Below, in pieces: positions 5,360 to 37,771 of a stretch of DNA of 64,000 bases (position 1 is its first letter; each line of letters opens with the position of its first letter). Both the position numbers and the translations under genes were made by a program. The stretch is taken from contig JAZNJS010000051.1 in the NCBI GenBank assembly GCA_045578185.1, positions 10,697 to 74,696 of the forward strand, in the 5' to 3' direction. The DNA comes from Clostridia bacterium (GTDB lineage: Bacteria > Bacillota > Clostridia > UBA1381 > UBA9506). Under the pieces are notes generated by a model that had not been told where the DNA came from, ran no database searches, and saw only the letters and a list, made by a program, of their open reading frames with translations.

Positions 5360-7412
5360 ATCTGTTTAAATAATTGTAAATTATTATAAGTGCATCGCCA
5401 CGTTTTAAATTTGTCTGTGCAGAAAATGTATCAGTCTGCGAATACACAAGCTCAAGGCCCGCAGCCAGCGCGCCGTAGCCTTTGTCGCTTTCTGCCACAT
5501 CGGCAAACGGACAGTTAAATATTCCGGGAATTGCCGCAAATTCAGCATATCCTAATGCATTAAGAAGATACTTGATACCGCCAATGCGTGTTATAGGAGC
5601 ATCGGGGTTTATATCGTCTTTACTCAAAACGCCCTGTCTTATCATATAATTGTAAAAATCTTCATCCGTTTTTGCAAAACTACGATTTAGCACAGCGCGA
5701 GCAATAAGTTTAAGATAATCTTTTTGAAGCACAGCATCGTCCGCTCTTAACATATTCTCATCATAACAAATGTCCATTAAAAGCAGTTTCTGCGCTGCAT
5801 CTTCAGCATAGTGACCGGAAAGGTCATTATACTCAAATTTCCCTTTTTCCTTAATCGGTTCAAGTGACCAGTCAAGCTTTTCAAGCGTTTCGGCGCCAAG
5901 TATCATATTATCTTTGGTCGCATACACAAGCGCCGCCTTATTTTCTTTAGTCTCGCTGTCATATACCTTTAAATATCCCAAACAAAAATTATCTTCAGCC
6001 AAAACCTTATCATATACCGCACTAAGATTTGCTACTGATTTATGGTCAGGAAATTCCGCGTCAGTATAATTTAAATTAAACGAGCTTATTTCTCCCCGCT
6101 TGGTATCTATATAGACGCTCGCACCGTTATTATAAACTCTTACTCCGTCATAAACAAGCTGATACTCCGCTCTGTCTGTTTCATCGTTAAAGCGGTTTTT
6201 CGGCTGCATTTTTGCAAACTTTTCTTTATAGTATTTACCCAGAAACGCTTCAGCTTTTTTCTTCGTTTCCTCTGCGGTTAATGGCTTTTTAGCATTGTAA
6301 TTTTCATCCTGACCCGAATAGCCGTTAAATGCAACCACTTCGCCACTCATAGCATCAATCGAAACGTTACGATAGCCGTATTTTGAGCCATTGGATTCAA
6401 GTCTTAAATTGATTTGTCCTATGTATTTTCCCGAAGCGTTTTTATAAATATTAAAACTTGCAGCTTCATAGTCTTTGGTTATATTAAACTCTGATATACT
6501 GCGTGCAATTGCTTCCGCCTTATCTTTTGAGAGCATCTTGGCAATCTTATCAACCATCTCCTGCTCTTCTTTTGACAGTTTTATTTCTGCGCCGCTTGAG
6601 TTTGTCGCAGAGTCTTTCATTTCTTCTCGGAAATTGCCGCCGACTTCGTCGGAAATCATTTCATAATCAACAGCTTCCCCGCTTATTGCATCAACATAGA
6701 GAGTTTCGTCATATTTTGGGCGATACACGAGTTTTACGGTGTCGGCATAATCTTTGCTTACCACCTGATAAAACAACACATATCCAATCTTTTCCTGGTA
6801 TGCCTTGCGGGCATCAGCAAGCGAAATTGCCTCACCCTCATTAAAAATGAGCGCTTCATTCCAGTTCGCGTAGTAGCTCAAAAGTTTGAGATTATCCGCA
6901 TCCACGATGATTGATACGCTCTCACCGAAAACGGGGATGCCATCCTTTGCTCTTTGAGCGGTATATGTATAGGTATTATCGTAAGAATTATACGATACTT
7001 TCTCGTTTATAACCTGATTGTGCTTATCAGAATCAACAACGACAAAATGCTCTTTCGCCGCACGCATAGCAACTTCCTTTATATGTGCAGGATATTTCAT
7101 CTGACCGTATTTTTTTGTGCCGTCGTAGAAATTATAATTATATATAGTTTTATTTTCTCCAACCTCGACATTTATCGAAGAAGACTTCGTTTCGTCCTTA
7201 CTTTCCCAGTTTAAATAGTATCTCGTGCCGTTTTTGCTCTCGCTGTGATTATAGTTTTTAAAAACAAATTCGTCATCGGAAATCGCAAGTTTTTCTTTTA
7301 CAAAAACAATCAGTTTGGCTGCGTTTTCACTGTTTACAGTATCTGCAAACGCACTAAACCCCATTGTAAAAACTAAAGATGCCGCTAATAAAATACTTAT
7401 AAATCTTTTCAT
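5358..7412 (-). CDS. Secreted cell-wall protein with PepSY-like repeats and C-terminal SLH-like domains
   Basis: Signal peptide MKRFISILLAASLVFTMGFSAFA. Repeated D(A/T)xSGE(A/V)V endings typical of PepSY-type modules. The C-terminal part has F.D....Y...A and similar SLH-like segments. GGGGAGGG RBS. Function unknown. Confidence 0.55.
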   Translation of the reverse strand: MKRFISILLAASLVFTMGFSAFADTVNSENAAKLIVFVKEKLAISDDEFVFKNYNHSESKNGTRYYLNWESKDETKSSSINVEVGENKTIYNYNFYDGTKKYGQMKYPAHIKEVAMRAAKEHFVVVDSDKHNQVINEKVSYNSYDNTYTYTAQRAKDGIPVFGESVSIIVDADNLKLLSYYANWNEALIFNEGEAISLADARKAYQEKIGYVLFYQVVSKDYADTVKLVYRPKYDETLYVDAISGEAVDYEMISDEVGGNFREEMKDSATNSSGAEIKLSKEEQEMVDKIAKMLSKDKAEAIARSISEFNITKDYEAASFNIYKNASGKYIGQINLRLESNGSKYGYRNVSIDAMSGEVVAFNGYSGQDENYNAKKPLTAEETKKKAEAFLGKYYKEKFAKMQPKNRFNDETDRAEYQLVYDGVRVYNNGASVYIDTKRGEISSFNLNYTDAEFPDHKSVANLSAVYDKVLAEDNFCLGYLKVYDSETKENKAALVYATKDNMILGAETLEKLDWSLEPIKEKGKFEYNDLSGHYAEDAAQKLLLMDICYDENMLRADDAVLQKDYLKLIARAVLNRSFAKTDEDFYNYMIRQGVLSKDDINPDAPITRIGGIKYLLNALGYAEFAAIPGIFNCPFADVAESDKGYGALAAGLELVYSQTDTFSAQTNLKRGDALIIIYNYLNR

Positions 7413-32539: not shown

Positions 32540-33030
32540 AACGGATTTTGCTCCTTTTTATCCGAGTTCTTTTTAAATACCCATAGCCTATTTCCCAAGA
32601 AATTAACAATCAACGAAAAAGGCATAGATATAAGCTTGCAAAACATTACCGAGGCGTCTCCCGATAATCTGTATGAAATATTTGTCAGAGATAAAAGATA
32701 ATTCACCGCGCGCTCTGCGTGCAAAAAGTCATAAAACAGATGCAGACAAAGTATTGTAACGCTCATCGCGACAAAGTTTACAACCACAAACTTTATTATC
32801 TCATCCGCTCTTATCGTTCCTTTTCTGCCAAAGGTCCAGTAGCGGTTAAAAACATAACTGTTTGTCATCGCAATAGCCGTTGCAAAAACCTGTGCCATCG
32901 TTTTATTAATATTTAAAATACTAAAAAACAGGAAAAACAAAACATAGTCTAAAACAGTATTAAATGCACCTATCGAGCAAAATTTAACTATTTCAATCAG
33001 GTTCTTTTTCCTGATATTTGCTTCAATCAT
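32536..33030 (-). CDS. GtrA-family membrane protein
   Basis: 164 aa with 4 TM segments. F..IG..NT..D...F N-terminal motif and a C-terminal N....WVF motif. Confidence 0.8.
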   Translation of the reverse strand: MIEANIRKKNLIEIVKFCSIGAFNTVLDYVLFFLFFSILNINKTMAQVFATAIAMTNSYVFNRYWTFGRKGTIRADEIIKFVVVNFVAMSVTILCLHLFYDFLHAERAVNYLLSLTNISYRLSGDASVMFCKLISMPFSLIVNFLGNRLWVFKKNSDKKEQNPL

Positions 33031-33970
33031 TTTTATTCACCCTCTGAAAACCGATTTTTTCTCTGATGATATAAAGCGGTCGGTTTTTAACCTCATCATA
33101 AATTCTGCCGATATATTCGCCGATAATTCCGAGCATCATAAGCGTCACGCCGTTAAATATGAGCGAAACAGCAAGAGTAGATGCCCAGCCTGCAACAGCG
33201 GCATCGGTAAACAGACGAAGATAAAGTACAATCAAAAGATATAAAAAGCTAGCAAACGCAACCATAAAACCGATATATATTGAAAGTTTAAGCGGCTTAT
33301 ATGAAAACGTTGTGATGGCATCCATCGCAAACTTCAGCATCTTTTTAAGCGGATACTTCGTCTCGCCCGCAAAACGCTCTTCTCTTACATAAGTAACCGC
33401 AGTCTGACGGAAACCAACCCAACTCACGAGACCTCTTACGTAACGGTTCTTCTCCGTAAGAGACGACATGACATCGCAAACCTTTCGGTCAATAAGACGA
33501 AAATCGCCCGTGTCAACAGGAATATCCACACTCGTCATACTACGCAAAAATCTGTAAAACATCTTCGCTGTCAGCTTTTTAAATACAGTCTCACCCTTTC
33601 GTTTTGCACGCCGGCCGTAGACTACGTCATAGCCCTCTTTCCACCTTTCAATCATCTGCAAAATTACTTCGGGCGGGTCCTGAAGGTCAGCATCAATAAC
33701 AACGATTGCCTGACCCGACGAATTGTCCATTCCTGCTGTAATCGCAGTCTGATGACCGAAATTTCTCGAGAAATTGATAAGGCGCACATTCGGGTCCTCT
33801 GAGCATATCTCAGTTATAATTTCTTCCGTTTTATCTCGGCTGCCGTCGTTTACGAATATTAGCTCATACGCCTCGCCGGTACTGTCCATAACGTTTTTAA
33901 GGCGCTTATAGCTCTCACGGGCAACCTCCTCTTCGTTATATACGGGCACCACAACAGAATAACGAATCAT
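33023..33970 (-). CDS. Family 2 glycosyltransferase, polyprenol-phosphate sugar transferase (GtrB/CsbB-like)
   Basis: SVVVPVYNEE, DGS.D.T and VIDADLQDPPE motifs plus two C-terminal TM helices. It overlaps the gtrA-like gene by 8 nt. Confidence 0.85.
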   Translation of the reverse strand: MIRYSVVVPVYNEEEVARESYKRLKNVMDSTGEAYELIFVNDGSRDKTEEIITEICSEDPNVRLINFSRNFGHQTAITAGMDNSSGQAIVVIDADLQDPPEVILQMIERWKEGYDVVYGRRAKRKGETVFKKLTAKMFYRFLRSMTSVDIPVDTGDFRLIDRKVCDVMSSLTEKNRYVRGLVSWVGFRQTAVTYVREERFAGETKYPLKKMLKFAMDAITTFSYKPLKLSIYIGFMVAFASFLYLLIVLYLRLFTDAAVAGWASTLAVSLIFNGVTLMMLGIIGEYIGRIYDEVKNRPLYIIREKIGFQRVNKND

Positions 33971-34036
33971 CCTTTTTCCCTCCGATATCTTTCGTAATTA
34001 TCGCACAATGTATTTCTACCGCAATTTTTCCGTTTT

Positions 34037-34555
34037 TTAAACATATTTATACACTTCTTTGTAGAGCACATTTCTTATGTTTTGAAATTCGTTCTCGTCC
34101 ACCTTGCCGCCGTGCGTCATAATCATAAGCGGCACGATATTTTTCCCCTTGGAAATCGGTGGCTGAAAATATTCATAATCATTTAAATAAAATCCGTTAC
34201 GCTCATAAAAGGAAATACGCCTAATTTGTATCTTACTTTTCGGCGGCTCTACCTCAAGGCAGGCTCTTTTATCTGTCATATGAGTCAATTCATTTAATAT
34301 TTTAGCCCCCAGTCCCCCGTTTCGATTTTCGGGACTTACGGCGAAATGCTCTATAAAAACAAAATCATCAAATTCCCACACCGCTATAAAACCCTCTATA
34401 TGAGCATCAGATTCATATTCGGCGTACACACAATATCTCGCCTTATCAAAAAGCTCCTTTTGCTCATTATACGGTCTTATTTCATCACTTGGAAAACTCT
34501 TTTCCATAATATCATAAACCAAATCAAAGTCATTTTTCTCCACTTTTTTAATCAT
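34037..34555 (-). CDS. GNAT family N-acetyltransferase (172 aa)
   Basis: Acetyl-CoA motif A: IEHFAVSPENRNGGLGAKIL (R-x-x-G-x-G/A). ATG at 34555 follows AAGGAA. Same strand as the retron RT, 98 nt downstream of it. Confidence 0.8.
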   Translation of the reverse strand: MIKKVEKNDFDLVYDIMEKSFPSDEIRPYNEQKELFDKARYCVYAEYESDAHIEGFIAVWEFDDFVFIEHFAVSPENRNGGLGAKILNELTHMTDKRACLEVEPPKSKIQIRRISFYERNGFYLNDYEYFQPPISKGKNIVPLMIMTHGGKVDENEFQNIRNVLYKEVYKYV

Positions 34556-34653
34556 AAAATTTCCTTCTTTTGAGAAATTCAATAAAAGTTATCCTATAGG
34601 GAAGGGATAGATGCAATATTTTAAATACGTCATTATACAAAAACACAATGCTA

Positions 34654-35574
34654 TTAAATACGTTTAATTTTTTCCATTAACCATTTTTTATAACCTATCA
34701 TTTCGGCGTTGGTGGCATCTACCGATAAAACATAATTCACCTTACCAAGTAGTTTCATTAAATAATCCTTCTCGCTTACATCAAGTTGTTTTCTTTGCAA
34801 ATGCGAAACTACACCAAACTTCATGCAGTAATACATTTCCTGTCTTATTTTCTTTCTGTATAACAAAGGTGTATTTATTTTTTCATTTACTATAATTCCT
34901 GTAACAATTTGTTTTTGTCCTTTGCGAGCAACGACAGTTTTATTATCATTAAGATAAAAACCCATTTTTTTAAGTTCTTTTTTTACAAAAGAAATAACTT
35001 CTATATAATTAAAATCCCCGGAAAAGGTCATATCGTCACAATATCTGGTATATCTTATCCCTTTTTCTTTGCACCATTCCCCAACGGCATTATCAAAATC
35101 TTTCATAATAATATTAGAAATAATTGGCGATGTGGGCGCTCCTTGAGGTAATGCATTGTTATATATACAAAGTAATGACAACAAAATACGATTACTTTCA
35201 GAGTATTTTTCTTTAACAAAAATCTTTTCTTTAACCATAGGATAAATTATATGGTCAAAGAAATGTCGGATATCCAATTTCAGCATAGTATTTTTTTTAA
35301 GATGTGGATATGCATTCTTAACCGTTGAAGCACCATATCTATATGCAGTAGCATAAGATGAAACTTCTTCATATACAAGAAGCTTTTCAACTATTCTTTT
35401 TTGTATTGTTTTTAAAAATTCATCTGGAACAGAAAGTTCTCTGTATTCTCCATTTTTCTTTGGAATTTTTGTTTGATAATAGTGTGAAGATACGTGATTG
35501 CTAAGTGAATATAATGCTTTTGCTGAAACACCAAGGTCATTCGTCAAAGAGGAAAGTTCCTTATATACAATCAT
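34654..35574 (-). CDS. Retron-type reverse transcriptase (306 aa, no fused extra domain)
   Basis: Ordered motifs are IPKKNGEYRELSVP, the retron-specific NAxxH (KNAYPH), LDIRHFFDHI, LPQGAPTSPIISN, the YxDD box (YTRYCDDMTFS), GFYLNDNKT and the retron-specific VTG (QIVTGIIVN). AAAGGAGGG RBS. An msr/msd-like ncRNA lies directly upstream. Confidence 0.9.
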   Translation of the reverse strand: MIVYKELSSLTNDLGVSAKALYSLSNHVSSHYYQTKIPKKNGEYRELSVPDEFLKTIQKRIVEKLLVYEEVSSYATAYRYGASTVKNAYPHLKKNTMLKLDIRHFFDHIIYPMVKEKIFVKEKYSESNRILLSLLCIYNNALPQGAPTSPIISNIIMKDFDNAVGEWCKEKGIRYTRYCDDMTFSGDFNYIEVISFVKKELKKMGFYLNDNKTVVARKGQKQIVTGIIVNEKINTPLLYRKKIRQEMYYCMKFGVVSHLQRKQLDVSEKDYLMKLLGKVNYVLSVDATNAEMIGYKKWLMEKIKRI

Positions 35575-35602
35575 TATTAAACTTCCCTCCTTTCAGAATA
35601 TC

Positions 35603-35778
35603 GTGGAACAAAACAATGTGAATTACGATGTTGTGTAGCTGTATATAAGCCCATGAAGTGGGCCTTTCAATACAGCGGAATCAACTTCGTTTGAACAAAG
35701 TGAATACTTATAAATGTTACTTCCCGACAACGACTCGTTGTTGGTGTCAAAGTATATTGACTTGCGCTTATGTTCCAC
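35603..35778 (-). ncRNA. Retron msr/msd non-coding RNA (about 176 nt)
   Basis: On the minus strand, a1 GTGGAACA (35771-35778) and a2 TGTTCCAC (35603-35610) are perfect inverted repeats. a1 is followed by UAAGCG, a candidate branching G. Next come stem-loop 1 (35746-35761, 5 bp), stem-loop 2 (35724-35744, 8 bp) and a 64-nt imperfect long hairpin (35626-35689; helices of 3+4+7+5 bp). a2 ends 28 nt before the RT ATG. Confidence 0.8.
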
Positions 35779-35785
35779 TAATTTT

Positions 35786-35791
35786 ATTATA
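35786..35791 (-). promoter_or_regulatory. -10 box (TATAAT) for the retron transcript
   Basis: TATAAT on the minus strand lies 7 nt upstream of the first base of a1. No good -35 was seen. Confidence 0.55.
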
Positions 35792-35935
35792 GCGAAATCA
35801 CTATCCAATAAAAAGGACGATGAAACAATATACGACCTTACACAAATACTACCATCAATTTTTCGTCAAATTTAGATATCCATTATAAAATTAGTGCACA
35901 TTTTAGATGCCACAAAATCATTTTACGACGCCGTC

Positions 35936-36016
35936 AATTGATGCAGCGGTTAAAGACCGCAAAAAGTCATTAGACTTTTAGGAATTTTGTATAACAAAAT
36001 TCCGTATGCATCAATT
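35936..36016. other. Compact four-way-junction element (closing stem plus three hairpins); function unknown
   Basis: aattgatgca (35936-45) pairs with tgcatcaatt (36007-16). Inside are gcggt/accgc (35946-60), aaaagtc/gactttt (35962-79) and ggaattttg/caaaattcc (35981-36003). All stems are perfect and linkers are 0-3 nt. Confidence 0.6.
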
Positions 36017-36060
36017 ATACCACACTCTCCCACCTAATTCAATATTATTACAAATTTACC

Positions 36061-36146
36061 TGTCGTTGCTCACTGTAATTTGTCGAAACATTTTCACCAT
36101 TCGACACGCCAAACCGACAAGTTTTTAGCCACCTGCGCGTTATAAT
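36061..36146 (+). promoter_or_regulatory. spoIIG-type promoter region with Spo0A boxes
   Basis: Perfect 0A boxes are TGTCGAA at 36081-36087 (+) and at 36100-36106 (-, ttcgaca). Imperfect boxes lie at 36061-36067 (TGTCGTT) and 36113-36119 (-, TGTCGGT). TATAAT at 36141-36146 is about 35 nt before the spoIIGA ATG. Confidence 0.7.
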
Positions 36147-36180
36147 ATTTAACAGAAACACACGATAAAGGAGCTAAAAA

Positions 36181-37173
36181 ATGCAGATAAAAGTCTATGT
36201 AGACATACTTTTTTTAATTAATTTTATCTCTGACTTTTTTCTGCTTTCTCTTACCGCCGTACTTTTAAGGCTTGCGCCGAAAATAATGAGAGCAATTTTT
36301 GCAGCAAGTCTCGGTGCCATATACTCCGTAGTGGCATTTTTTATTTATTTGCCGCTTATGTATTCATTCATGGCAAAAGCTCTCGTGAGCTGTTTTATGG
36401 TTGCAATCACATTTGGCGCAAAAAATCTGCGCTCGTTTATAAAACGCATTTGCGTATTTTATCTTGTAACTATTGCCTTTGCGGGTGCGCTGTACGCTCT
36501 TTTGTTTTCGACAAGCATCGGCAGCAAATTAGGCACTGTCATTTCAGGAACAAGTCTATATCTAAACCTTCCGTCTTATTTTCTTATGATGGCCGCGGCG
36601 CTTATTTATTTTTTGTTTTCCTGCGCCTTTCGTGCTATAGAAAAAAGCGCAGATAAAGGAAGATTTTTAAAATATGTTCAGGTAACTTATGGCGAAAAAA
36701 GTATTATGCTTCCTGCTCTTTATGACACAGGGAATTTTCTCACTGACCCAAGAGAAAAACAAGGTGTAATTATAGGAGAATTCCGAGCTTTAGCACCTCT
36801 CTTTAATGATGCAGCAAATATTGAGTCTGCTGCCCTGCTCTATGGTTTTTCACAAATAATATGCAGGGGCATCTCAGGCGAGCAAATGCTTTATTCATTT
36901 TACGCCCGGGTAGGATACCCAAAAAACAATGAAACAAAAAGGCTTTTTGCCTTAACTGATAAACCTCTCGACCGCGAGGGGCGTTATTATTTGATACTAC
37001 CTAATGACTTTAAGGGAGAGAACTTAAATGATGGCACATTTATTAAAAGATTTTCTAATTCTTGCAAAGCTAAAATATTCCTTGCTAAAAAACTGGCTCA
37101 CAGAGCCGGACATCCCCACAGAAAGCTATTACATAAGCTCGGGGGAGGCGCTTCCCGCTCCGCTAAGCGCTGA
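36181..37173 (+). CDS. spoIIGA: Sigma-E processing aspartic peptidase SpoIIGA
   Basis: N-terminus [16 protein letters not shown] is typical of SpoIIGA, with about 5 TM segments and a central ALYDTGN (DSGN-like) catalytic motif. The ORF runs 146 nt into sigE. Confidence 0.85.
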
Positions 37174-37771
37174 AGAAGAGATATATTTTCTGTCTCAACT
37201 TGCGCCCGATAATATAGAAGTCAAGCGTGTTTTGGTTGAACGAAACCTAAGGCTTGTTGTGTATGTTGCAAGAAAGTTTGAAAATACCGGTATTTGCATT
37301 GAAGATTTAATATCAATTGGCTCAATCGGTCTTATTAAGGCAATTAACTCATTTGACACATCCAAAAACATAAAACTTGCTACCTATGCCTCCAGGTGCA
37401 TCGAAAATGAAATTTTGATGTTTTTGAGGAAAAATCACAATATAAAAAGCGAGGTTTCCATTGACGAGCCGCTTAACACCGACTGGGACGGGAACGAGCT
37501 CCTGCTTTCCGATGTTTTAGGGACTGAATCTGACGAAGTTTCCAAACATTTAGAGGACGAAGTGGACAAAGAGCTGTTATCTCTTGCAATTAAAAAACTT
37601 TCTAATCGCGAGCGCGCAATTATGGAGCTCAGATTTGGCCTTGGTGGCAGGGTTGAAAAAACACAAAAAGAAGTTGCCGAGCTACTCGGTATTTCGCAAT
37701 CTTACATATCAAGGCTTGAAAAACGTATAATTGCACGCCTGAAGAAAGAGATTGCTAAGATGGTACAGTAA
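37028..37771 (+). CDS. sigE: Sporulation sigma factor SigE (pro-sigma-E)
   Basis: Pro-sequence then [18 protein letters not shown]..., region 2 ([12 protein letters not shown]), and region 4 ([11 protein letters not shown]). It lies directly after spoIIGA. Confidence 0.93.

Follow-up and report, generated by a model that had tools for sequence, protein, structure and literature searches.

Stand-alone (msr-msd)-RT cassettes, in which a reverse transcriptase (RT) gene is accompanied by its msr-msd RNA only, were described in 2020 by Mestre et al. for the branch of retron RT clade 2 with Retron-Eco5 (Ec107) among its members, and whether these cassettes rely on unknown effectors encoded in trans or on a different mechanism was left undecided (PMC7736814). 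A 2026 SPIRE survey assigned 178 of 192 (93%) clade2_Ec107like retrons to Bacillota and found 91% to be host-associated, and it described the group as being without accessory module, as having a non-coding RNA (ncRNA) detectable by the Ec107_like covariance model and as being of low novelty priority (10.64898/2026.05.14.725207). Clade 2 retrons were also among the higher producers of reverse-transcribed DNA (RT-DNA) in an experimental census (10.1101/2024.01.25.577267). Here, we analysed a retron on the minus strand of a 64,000-nucleotide stretch of a Clostridia bacterium genome (assembly GCA_045578185.1, contig JAZNJS010000051.1, positions 10,697 to 74,696 of the forward strand), which consists of an RT gene directly preceded by an msr-msd RNA. 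This whole stretch is further referred to as the window, and all positions are counted from its first letter.

The window element is a genuine retron of this known, surveyed and effector-less lineage and not a new kind of system. Taking all evidence together, we consider it very probable that it forms a complete retron with two components, belonging to the stand-alone Ec107-like branch of RT clade 2, and that it uses canonical retron chemistry. It displays every testable feature of that branch; what it lacks is the linked effector or fused domain that makes a retron tripartite, and precisely this lack is the hallmark of the lineage. Compared to the clade2_Ec107like retrons of Bacillota, it has the same lineage, phylum, absence of an accessory module and Ec107-like ncRNA, and nothing substantive differs, its one notable feature being a cassette GC content 10 points under that of the flanks. 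A first-pass annotation, made from the letters of the window alone, had called a retron in such a genome under-explored territory, a view contradicted by the description of the lineage in 2020 (PMC7736814) and by its survey in 2026, in which most members were Bacillota (10.64898/2026.05.14.725207).

The reverse transcriptase and its Ec107-like relatives

As read from its translation, the open reading frame (ORF) of the window RT contains the palm motifs LPQGAPTSPIISN and YTRYCDDMTFS (with the YCDD box) together with two retron-specific motifs, KNAYPH (NAxxH, region X) and QIVTGIIVN (VTG), all of which had been noticed in the first-pass annotation. Pfam recognises in this protein the RVT_1 domain alone (1e-22), a generic domain that would equally suit an RT of another class (group II intron, Abi/UG/DRT or diversity-generating retroelement) with a merely coincidental structure upstream. 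The more specific profiles, however, favour a retron RT by a large distance. All top PADLOC matches are retron RT models, headed by RT_Ec107-like (PDLC03739; 2.4e-127, 422.5 bits, residues 1-300 of 306) and followed by RT_III-A (338 bits, ~85 bits lower) and then by other retron types. Among the NCBIfam profiles, retron St85 (2.5e-65) scores far above both the Drt2 model (2e-18, 66.8 bits compared to a cut-off of 390) and the group II intron RT/maturase model (4e-18, 65.7 bits compared to a cut-off of 300), and retron models as a whole span 1e-127 to 1e-45. The best relatives in the PDB are likewise all retron RTs (Ec83, Ec67, Ec86, Kva2, Ec78 and Eco8; 4e-30 to 1e-14). In addition, an Rfam scan of positions 33000-37500 at a permissive threshold gave chance-level matches alone, with no retron family, intron or other known RNA, which implies that Rfam is without coverage of this ncRNA, and the upstream RNA covaries and is homologous to the validated Ec107 msr-msd (see below). 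The probability that the RT is of another class is therefore negligible, and the retron grouping proposed earlier from the motifs stands. By its sequence, the window RT belongs to the clade 2/Ec107-like lineage of retron RTs.

The authentic locus of Escherichia coli Ec107, the retron with which the stand-alone branch was founded, was also recovered (L081; strain E2348/69, NC_011601.1, 4059389-4064543, gene order pyrE-RT-slmA), which allowed a direct comparison. The Ec107 RT measures 319 aa compared to 306 aa in the window, the two proteins are 43% identical (E 8e-83) and the block YTRYCDDMTFSG is found in both. On the RT_Ec107-like model the Ec107 RT reaches 434 bits, ~120 over RT_III-A, and other members of the family reach 421-428 bits. 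The YCDD box, which is a peculiarity of the Ec107 RT (PMC6868368), is common to both enzymes. Both elements are solitary intergenic cassettes between housekeeping genes, with neither a prophage nor an effector (PMC6868368, PMC7736814), the hosts being Gammaproteobacteria for Ec107 and Bacillota/Clostridia for the window element. An Ec107-type RT gene between pyrE and slmA was present in 381 of 5,426 complete E. coli genomes, as a single chromosomal copy and never on a plasmid. Expression of Ec107 increases in stationary phase (Herzer 1996, cited in PMC6868368).

Architecture and covariation of the msr-msd RNA

The features of the locus are collected in Table 1. The TATAAT box, the a1 and a2 repeats, the UAAGCG motif and the two short stem-loops lie exactly where the first-pass annotation had placed them. 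The long hairpin that it proposed as msd is present as well and forms the msd core, be it with a span of 35625-35690 rather than 35626-35689, and the direct repeat said to flank this hairpin was recovered by a repeat search as two 12-nt copies that are 92% identical and 82 nt apart. The a2 core is the exact complement of the a1 core, with 28 nt from a2 to the ATG of the RT, and the stem formed by both arms reaches 11 positions with one U:U mismatch, ending exactly at G35767. Retron priming guanosines sit right at the end of the a1 stem. When folded, the 191-nt RNA has an energy of -53.6 kcal/mol (z = -5.8, with none of 200 shuffles equally stable), and a1/a2 closes the whole structure.

Table 1. 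Coordinates of the retron features in the window
Feature	Position	Strand	Basis and remarks
Candidate -10 box TATAAT of the retron promoter	35786-35791	-	Read from sequence; 7 nt upstream of a1
a1, 5' arm of the closing repeat	35768-35778; perfect core 35771-35778, GTGGAACA	-	Sequence, fold, repeat search and alignment
Predicted branching (priming) G	35767	-	Directly 3' of the a1 stem; motif A-G-N-G, within UAAGCG
msr stem-loop 1 (GUCAA...UUGAC)	35746-35761	-	Helix 2 of the alignment
msr stem-loop 2	35724-35744	-	9-bp stem; GCGAGUCG cap formed by the two innermost pairs and the loop; helix 3 of the alignment
Predicted msd (msDNA template)	35614-35714	-	First template base G35614; helices 4-6; extent inferred
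Direct repeat copy 1, AUUCACUUUGUU	35694-35705	-	Repeat search; 5' of the msd hairpin
Direct repeat copy 2, AUUCACAUUGUU	35612-35623	-	Repeat search; 3' of the msd hairpin, runs into a2
a2, 3' arm of the closing repeat	35603-35613; perfect core 35603-35610, TGTTCCAC	-	Sequence, fold, repeat search and alignment
Shine-Dalgarno sequence GGAGGG	35585-35590	-	Read from sequence; 10 nt before the RT start codon
Retron reverse transcriptase, 306 aa	34654-35574	-	ORF and profile matches; YCDD catalytic box; no extra domain
Extent of the transferable cassette	34658-35879	-	blastn of the window against L001-L008; sole DNA common to the closest loci

The window RT has thousands of relatives, the closest 120 of which are all ~300-312 aa long. 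A scan of one genome per species revealed RT relatives in 502 genomes, and 80 loci, nearly all from metagenome-assembled genomes of gut or rumen Clostridia, were kept for comparison. In 80/80 of these the RT match is nearly full length (~285-306 residues) with all catalytic motifs invariant, and nearly all of them carry an 8-14-bp inverted repeat with arms ~200 nt and ~30 nt before the RT start. The a1/a2 sequence itself differs among loci by compensatory variation, giving rise to GTGGAACA, GCGGAACA, ACGGAGCA, GCAGAGCA, TCCGTATCA, GCCAGTTAAACA and others.

To quantify this covariation, a six-helix structure was counted on a structure-blind MAFFT alignment (A2) of 45 homologous upstream regions. 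The six helices have 88.8% of their alignment cells paired, a fraction that falls to 34-48% on shifting the partner by 1-3 columns, and double-sided changes occur at 37 of the 46 pairs; the observed values were unmatched in all 500 shuffles. The a1/a2 helix (columns 9-19/217-227) shows changes on both sides in 9 of 11 pairs, and in some sequences compensatory changes carry the stem up to the invariant G. This G35767 is identical in 45/45 aligned ncRNAs, as are the A preceding it and the G two positions on. Stem-loop 1 is paired in 92% of cells with 3/5 pairs changed on both sides, and stem-loop 2 in 95% with 7/9 pairs changed; in the GCGAGUCG motif of the latter seven of the eight bases are invariant (C44, G45, G47, T48, C49 and G50 being invariant columns of A2). 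For the three msd helices (helices 4-6) the paired fractions are 80%, 96% and 89%, and double-sided changes are seen in 18 of 21 pairs. A small hairpin (columns 98-103/111-116) that would replace the base of the msd hairpin was considered and rejected, with 73% compared to 80% of cells paired and double changes in 4/6 compared to 8/8 pairs, although it may form as an alternative in the RNA. The a1/msr/msd/a2 structure is thus supported by covariation, and the conservation of the a1/a2 repeat and the hairpins beside homologous RTs, on which the earlier proposal depended, was found together with compensatory changes. A 61-aa ORF (35623-35808, minus strand) overlaps the whole ncRNA; it is probably spurious, since the compensatory pair changes and the loop indels indicate selection at the RNA level.

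From A2, and hence from Clostridia loci alone, we built a covariance model (R1), the E-values of which are rough because of a shortened calibration. In the window, R1 identifies one site (35601-35781, minus strand), besides a trivial match on the opposite strand that is due to the palindromic nature of the msd hairpin. Each of the 78 loci for which upstream sequence is available, ~33 of which lie outside the set from which the model was made, yields one full-length match immediately before the RT. R1 also matches the Ec107 msr-msd (L081:1858-2044) over its full length and at the right place and strand (52.3 bits, E 1e-10). The Ec107 and window ncRNAs have the same order of elements, namely a1, an AUAGCG-type priming motif, stem-loops 1 and 2, the msd hairpin and a2, and both possess the GCGAGUCG loop in stem-loop 2 and a CUUC-type apical loop in the msd. 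G35767 aligns with AAUAGCG of the Ec107 msr, GGCGAGUCGCC of stem-loop 2 is likewise found there, and the msd hairpin sequence UGUA...CUUC...UACA is conserved between Ec107 of E. coli and the gut Clostridia.

The direct repeat, AUUCAC(U/A)U(U/C)GUU, is conserved family-wide (A2 columns 93-105 and 205-216, with a mean major-base frequency of 0.81 and 0.86, respectively) and ranks among the most conserved unpaired sequence of the ncRNA; it is found in the window element, the Ec107 sequence lying outside this comparison. The effector of DRT2, which like the window element combines an RT and an ncRNA, a repeat-flanked template and no effector gene, is made by rolling-circle reverse transcription. 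Conserved 12-nt repeats flanking a template at 82 nt from each other could similarly permit template jumping or rolling-circle reverse transcription into a protein-coding concatemeric cDNA, which would explain the absence of an effector. This explanation is nevertheless highly improbable: the ncRNA has the retron-specific layout of a1/a2 and branching G, and the window RT is matched by the Drt2 model only weakly in comparison with retron St85 (2e-18 compared to 2.5e-65). When the rolling-circle product itself was examined, the concatemer of the 82-nt unit had stops in all six frames, the longest open run being 41 codons, and the unit length varied between 76 and 95 nt across loci without preference for multiples of three.

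Returning to the retron reading, two properties of the msd would fit its being copied into DNA. A G-U pair in RNA becomes a C-A mismatch in the complementary DNA strand, so that few wobbles are expected in an msd that must also pair as DNA. Among paired cells, the share of G-U pairs is indeed 13.5% for the two msr stem-loops (20% for stem-loop 1) compared to 1.7% for the three msd helices. Moreover, the predicted multicopy single-stranded DNA (msDNA), being the plus strand of 35614-35714, folds as DNA with -16 kcal/mol (z = -4.0).

By homology to characterised retrons, we propose that a promoter with the TATAAT box, which belongs to an upstream block common to the closest loci (L001-L003), drives a single transcript, with the msr-msd RNA (~180 nt) ahead of the RT gene. 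Pairing of a1 with a2 would bring the invariant G35767 next to the msd 3' end, while the RT would dock on the msr stem-loops, the conserved GCGAGUCG loop included. The 2'-OH of G35767 would then prime synthesis, the RT presumably copying the msd from template base G35614 onwards. The product would be a hairpin single-stranded msDNA of ~85-105 nt, joined 2'-5' to the remaining RNA. The 5' limit of the msd is approximate (~35700-35714), as it was deduced from the 107-nt msDNA of Ec107; the msd hairpin of the window is the shorter of the two, and whereas the Ec107 msDNA was shown experimentally, that of the window is predicted from sequence.

A number of points weigh against the reading of the locus as an msDNA-producing retron with a function in the cell. 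A consensus promoter scan gave no call at the TATAAT box, there being no good -35 hexamer at 16-18 nt, and a scan for a terminator-like site after the RT found none. The a1/a2 stem, which pairs RNA with RNA, is also poor in wobbles (2.2%), and the wobble counts are alignment cells that are not phylogenetically independent; for both reasons the wobble contrast is supportive only as a sign of reverse transcription of the msd. Synthesis of msDNA by the window element is predicted from its homology to Ec107 (43% protein identity and a 52-bit RNA match). Finally, the phage-defence tests that have been published did not include Ec107 (10.1101/2020.06.21.156273).

Genomic neighbourhood and possible role

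All ORFs within 6 kb of the RT were clustered for 81 loci in search of a recurrent neighbour. Only the RT cluster itself recurs (78 loci), the next cluster being present in 7 loci at varied positions. The window retron has genes for a GNAT acetyltransferase, a GT2 and a GtrA protein downstream and for SpoIIGA upstream, none of which was found beside the RT in more than one other locus. When the 56 further ORFs of the window were compared with PADLOC and Pfam, no retron effector family emerged but generic or housekeeping matches, such as RecD-like helicases and RecA, and outside the cassette the window carries core-genome genes (RecA, DNA polymerase III alpha subunit, RRF, UppS, LeuRS, RelA and others). 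The window element is accordingly a two-part cassette, with neither a linked effector nor a fused domain: of the canonical retron layout proposed in the first-pass annotation the succession of ncRNA and RT is upheld, but the usual tripartite organisation is not found.

The retron lies directly upstream of, and divergent from, spoIIGA (36181-37173, plus strand) and a sigE-like ORF (37028-37771, plus strand). From its position and sequence, the latter is a candidate sigE; its true start probably lies further downstream than listed, since the two listed ORFs overlap by 146 nt.

A neighbour considered as a partner is the GNAT acetyltransferase (34037-34582), which is on the same strand, starts 72 nt past the RT stop and is separated from it by no detected terminator; as an effector it would make the locus a new tripartite retron type. 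We find this very doubtful. The closest cassettes have no DNA homology to the window past the RT stop codon, and the GNAT protein has no PADLOC match. The neighbour analysis rejected it as a candidate, the gene standing beside 0/80 other RT loci.

Retron-Eco1 (Ec86), which serves as reference for the structure and mechanism of msDNA formation, has an RT of the same fold family (PDB 7v9u/7xjg, E ~1e-24) and a similar logic of a1/a2 repeat, priming G and msd hairpin, but as a type II-A retron it possesses an NDT-like toxin effector that is restrained by the msDNA-RT complex, whereas the window element is without such a partner. Type III-A retrons, which combine an RT with a PRTase-like effector and a winged-helix protein, are the sister RT group and have such a gene adjacent, while neither a PRTase-like nor a winged-helix gene adjoins the RT in the window or in the homologous loci.

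A dedicated effector could also be encoded in trans elsewhere in the genome, in which case the element would be a toxin-guarding defence retron. Most retron types are tripartite, the sister RT branch is linked to PRTase-like effectors (PMC7736814) with RT_III-A as second-best model for the window RT, and the inspected portion of the genome amounts to 64 kb. Against this, no gene family recurs near the RT in the 81 loci, no effector family was found among the other ORFs of the window, and a cassette transferring alone would reach a new host without its partner. Furthermore, most genomes with orphan retrons are without homologues of known retron-associated proteins (Mestre et al., PMC7736814). 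On balance, we consider an effector in trans possible but somewhat unlikely.

Loss of the effector from a type III-A retron might instead have left a decaying, functionless remnant; loss of the associated protein has been proposed for the stand-alone branch (PMC7736814), and no effector is present at the window or homologous loci. The state of the family argues otherwise, however, and makes decay improbable. The window ORF is intact and full length, the RT is near-complete with invariant catalytic motifs in 80/80 loci, the RNA helices are kept by compensatory changes and relatives occur in 502 species-level genomes. Across 75 loci the GC content of the cassette also tracks that of its flanks (r = 0.90, median difference -1.6 points), which points to long maintenance and indicates that the family is generally long-resident in its hosts.

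For the stand-alone Ec107-like retron that we favour, our best guess is that the RT-msDNA complex would act either alone or in concert with a host factor that is widely conserved and encoded at another locus, without guarding a dedicated toxin. A host-factor or self-sufficient role is preferred because the cassette moves and persists alone, intact, in many unrelated genomic contexts. One specific form of it, in which a self-sufficient cassette would act directly through its msDNA, e.g. with the msDNA as a decoy or sensor binding a phage or host DNA-processing protein, is a tentative idea that we regard as unlikely; if true, it would mean a retron that works without a toxin effector and is maintained in hundreds of Clostridia species. 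The interest that remains is how effector-less retrons work, the question left by Mestre et al. (2020), and the window element offers a compact (~1.2 kb), apparently recently transferred example of the lineage. Since the alignment and covariance model define the predicted priming G, the RT-binding stem-loops and the msd, the family is ready for direct testing, and the window element may serve as a small RT-DNA generator for Clostridia.

Extent, probable acquisition and upstream flank of the cassette

Comparison of the window with its closest homologous cassettes (blastn, L001-L008) showed 78-87% identity over a segment that opens 260-305 nt ahead of the RT start and closes with the stop codon of this gene, while the flanks of these cassettes are unrelated to those of the window. 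The conserved unit is therefore the ~1.2-kb promoter-ncRNA-RT cassette alone. An empty site was sought by scanning metagenomes with the neighbouring SpoIIGA protein, which returned no relative, and the exact window RT protein was absent from the contig index; the insertion boundaries consequently rest on the extent of homology with other cassettes.

The GC content drops to 0.27-0.33 over 34250-36250 compared to 0.40-0.46 on either side, and the cassette has 31% GC compared to 41% in its flanks, making the window an outlier in a family where cassette and host composition go together. This deficit of 10 points relative to core-genome flanks suggests that the window copy was recently acquired. 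The horizontal acquisition deduced earlier from AT-richness is thereby supported for this genome, but it does not extend to the family, in which cassette GC follows host GC.

Viral contigs (2.9 million) gave no sign of phage carriage of the family, containing only 2 distant RT relatives, neither with the ncRNA. One of them (L082; IMGVR_UViG_3300029785_000395, 6001-6879) encodes an RT with an Ec107-like profile (381 bits) and 40% identity to the window RT; R1 finds no ncRNA near it, and it may represent a divergent phage-borne member.

Two further features were observed in the upstream flank. In 9 of 76 loci, the DNA immediately preceding the retron promoter region contains a palindrome, GTCC-N8/9-GGAC, whose spacer is often T-rich, as in GTCCTTTTTATAGGAC; ~1 locus would be expected from the background of the same loci (0.013 per 210 nt). 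The exact copies, found in L003, L006, L008, L015, L016, L022, L044, L046 and L054, lie 190-400 nt upstream of the RT start. A degenerate form, GTCCTTTTTATTGGAT, occurs in the window (35804-35819) and in L001 and L002. The palindrome may be the operator of a regulator or a small insulating hairpin. The window also contains a 15-nt inverted repeat (35776-35790/35882-35896; 93% complementary, 91 nt apart), for which no obvious equivalent was found in L001-L003. Its outer arm, an inverted duplicate of the -10/a1-leader ATAATAAAATTAGTG, lies just beyond the upstream homology limit at 35879, and the repeat could be a mark of the cassette edge or of a divergent promoter.

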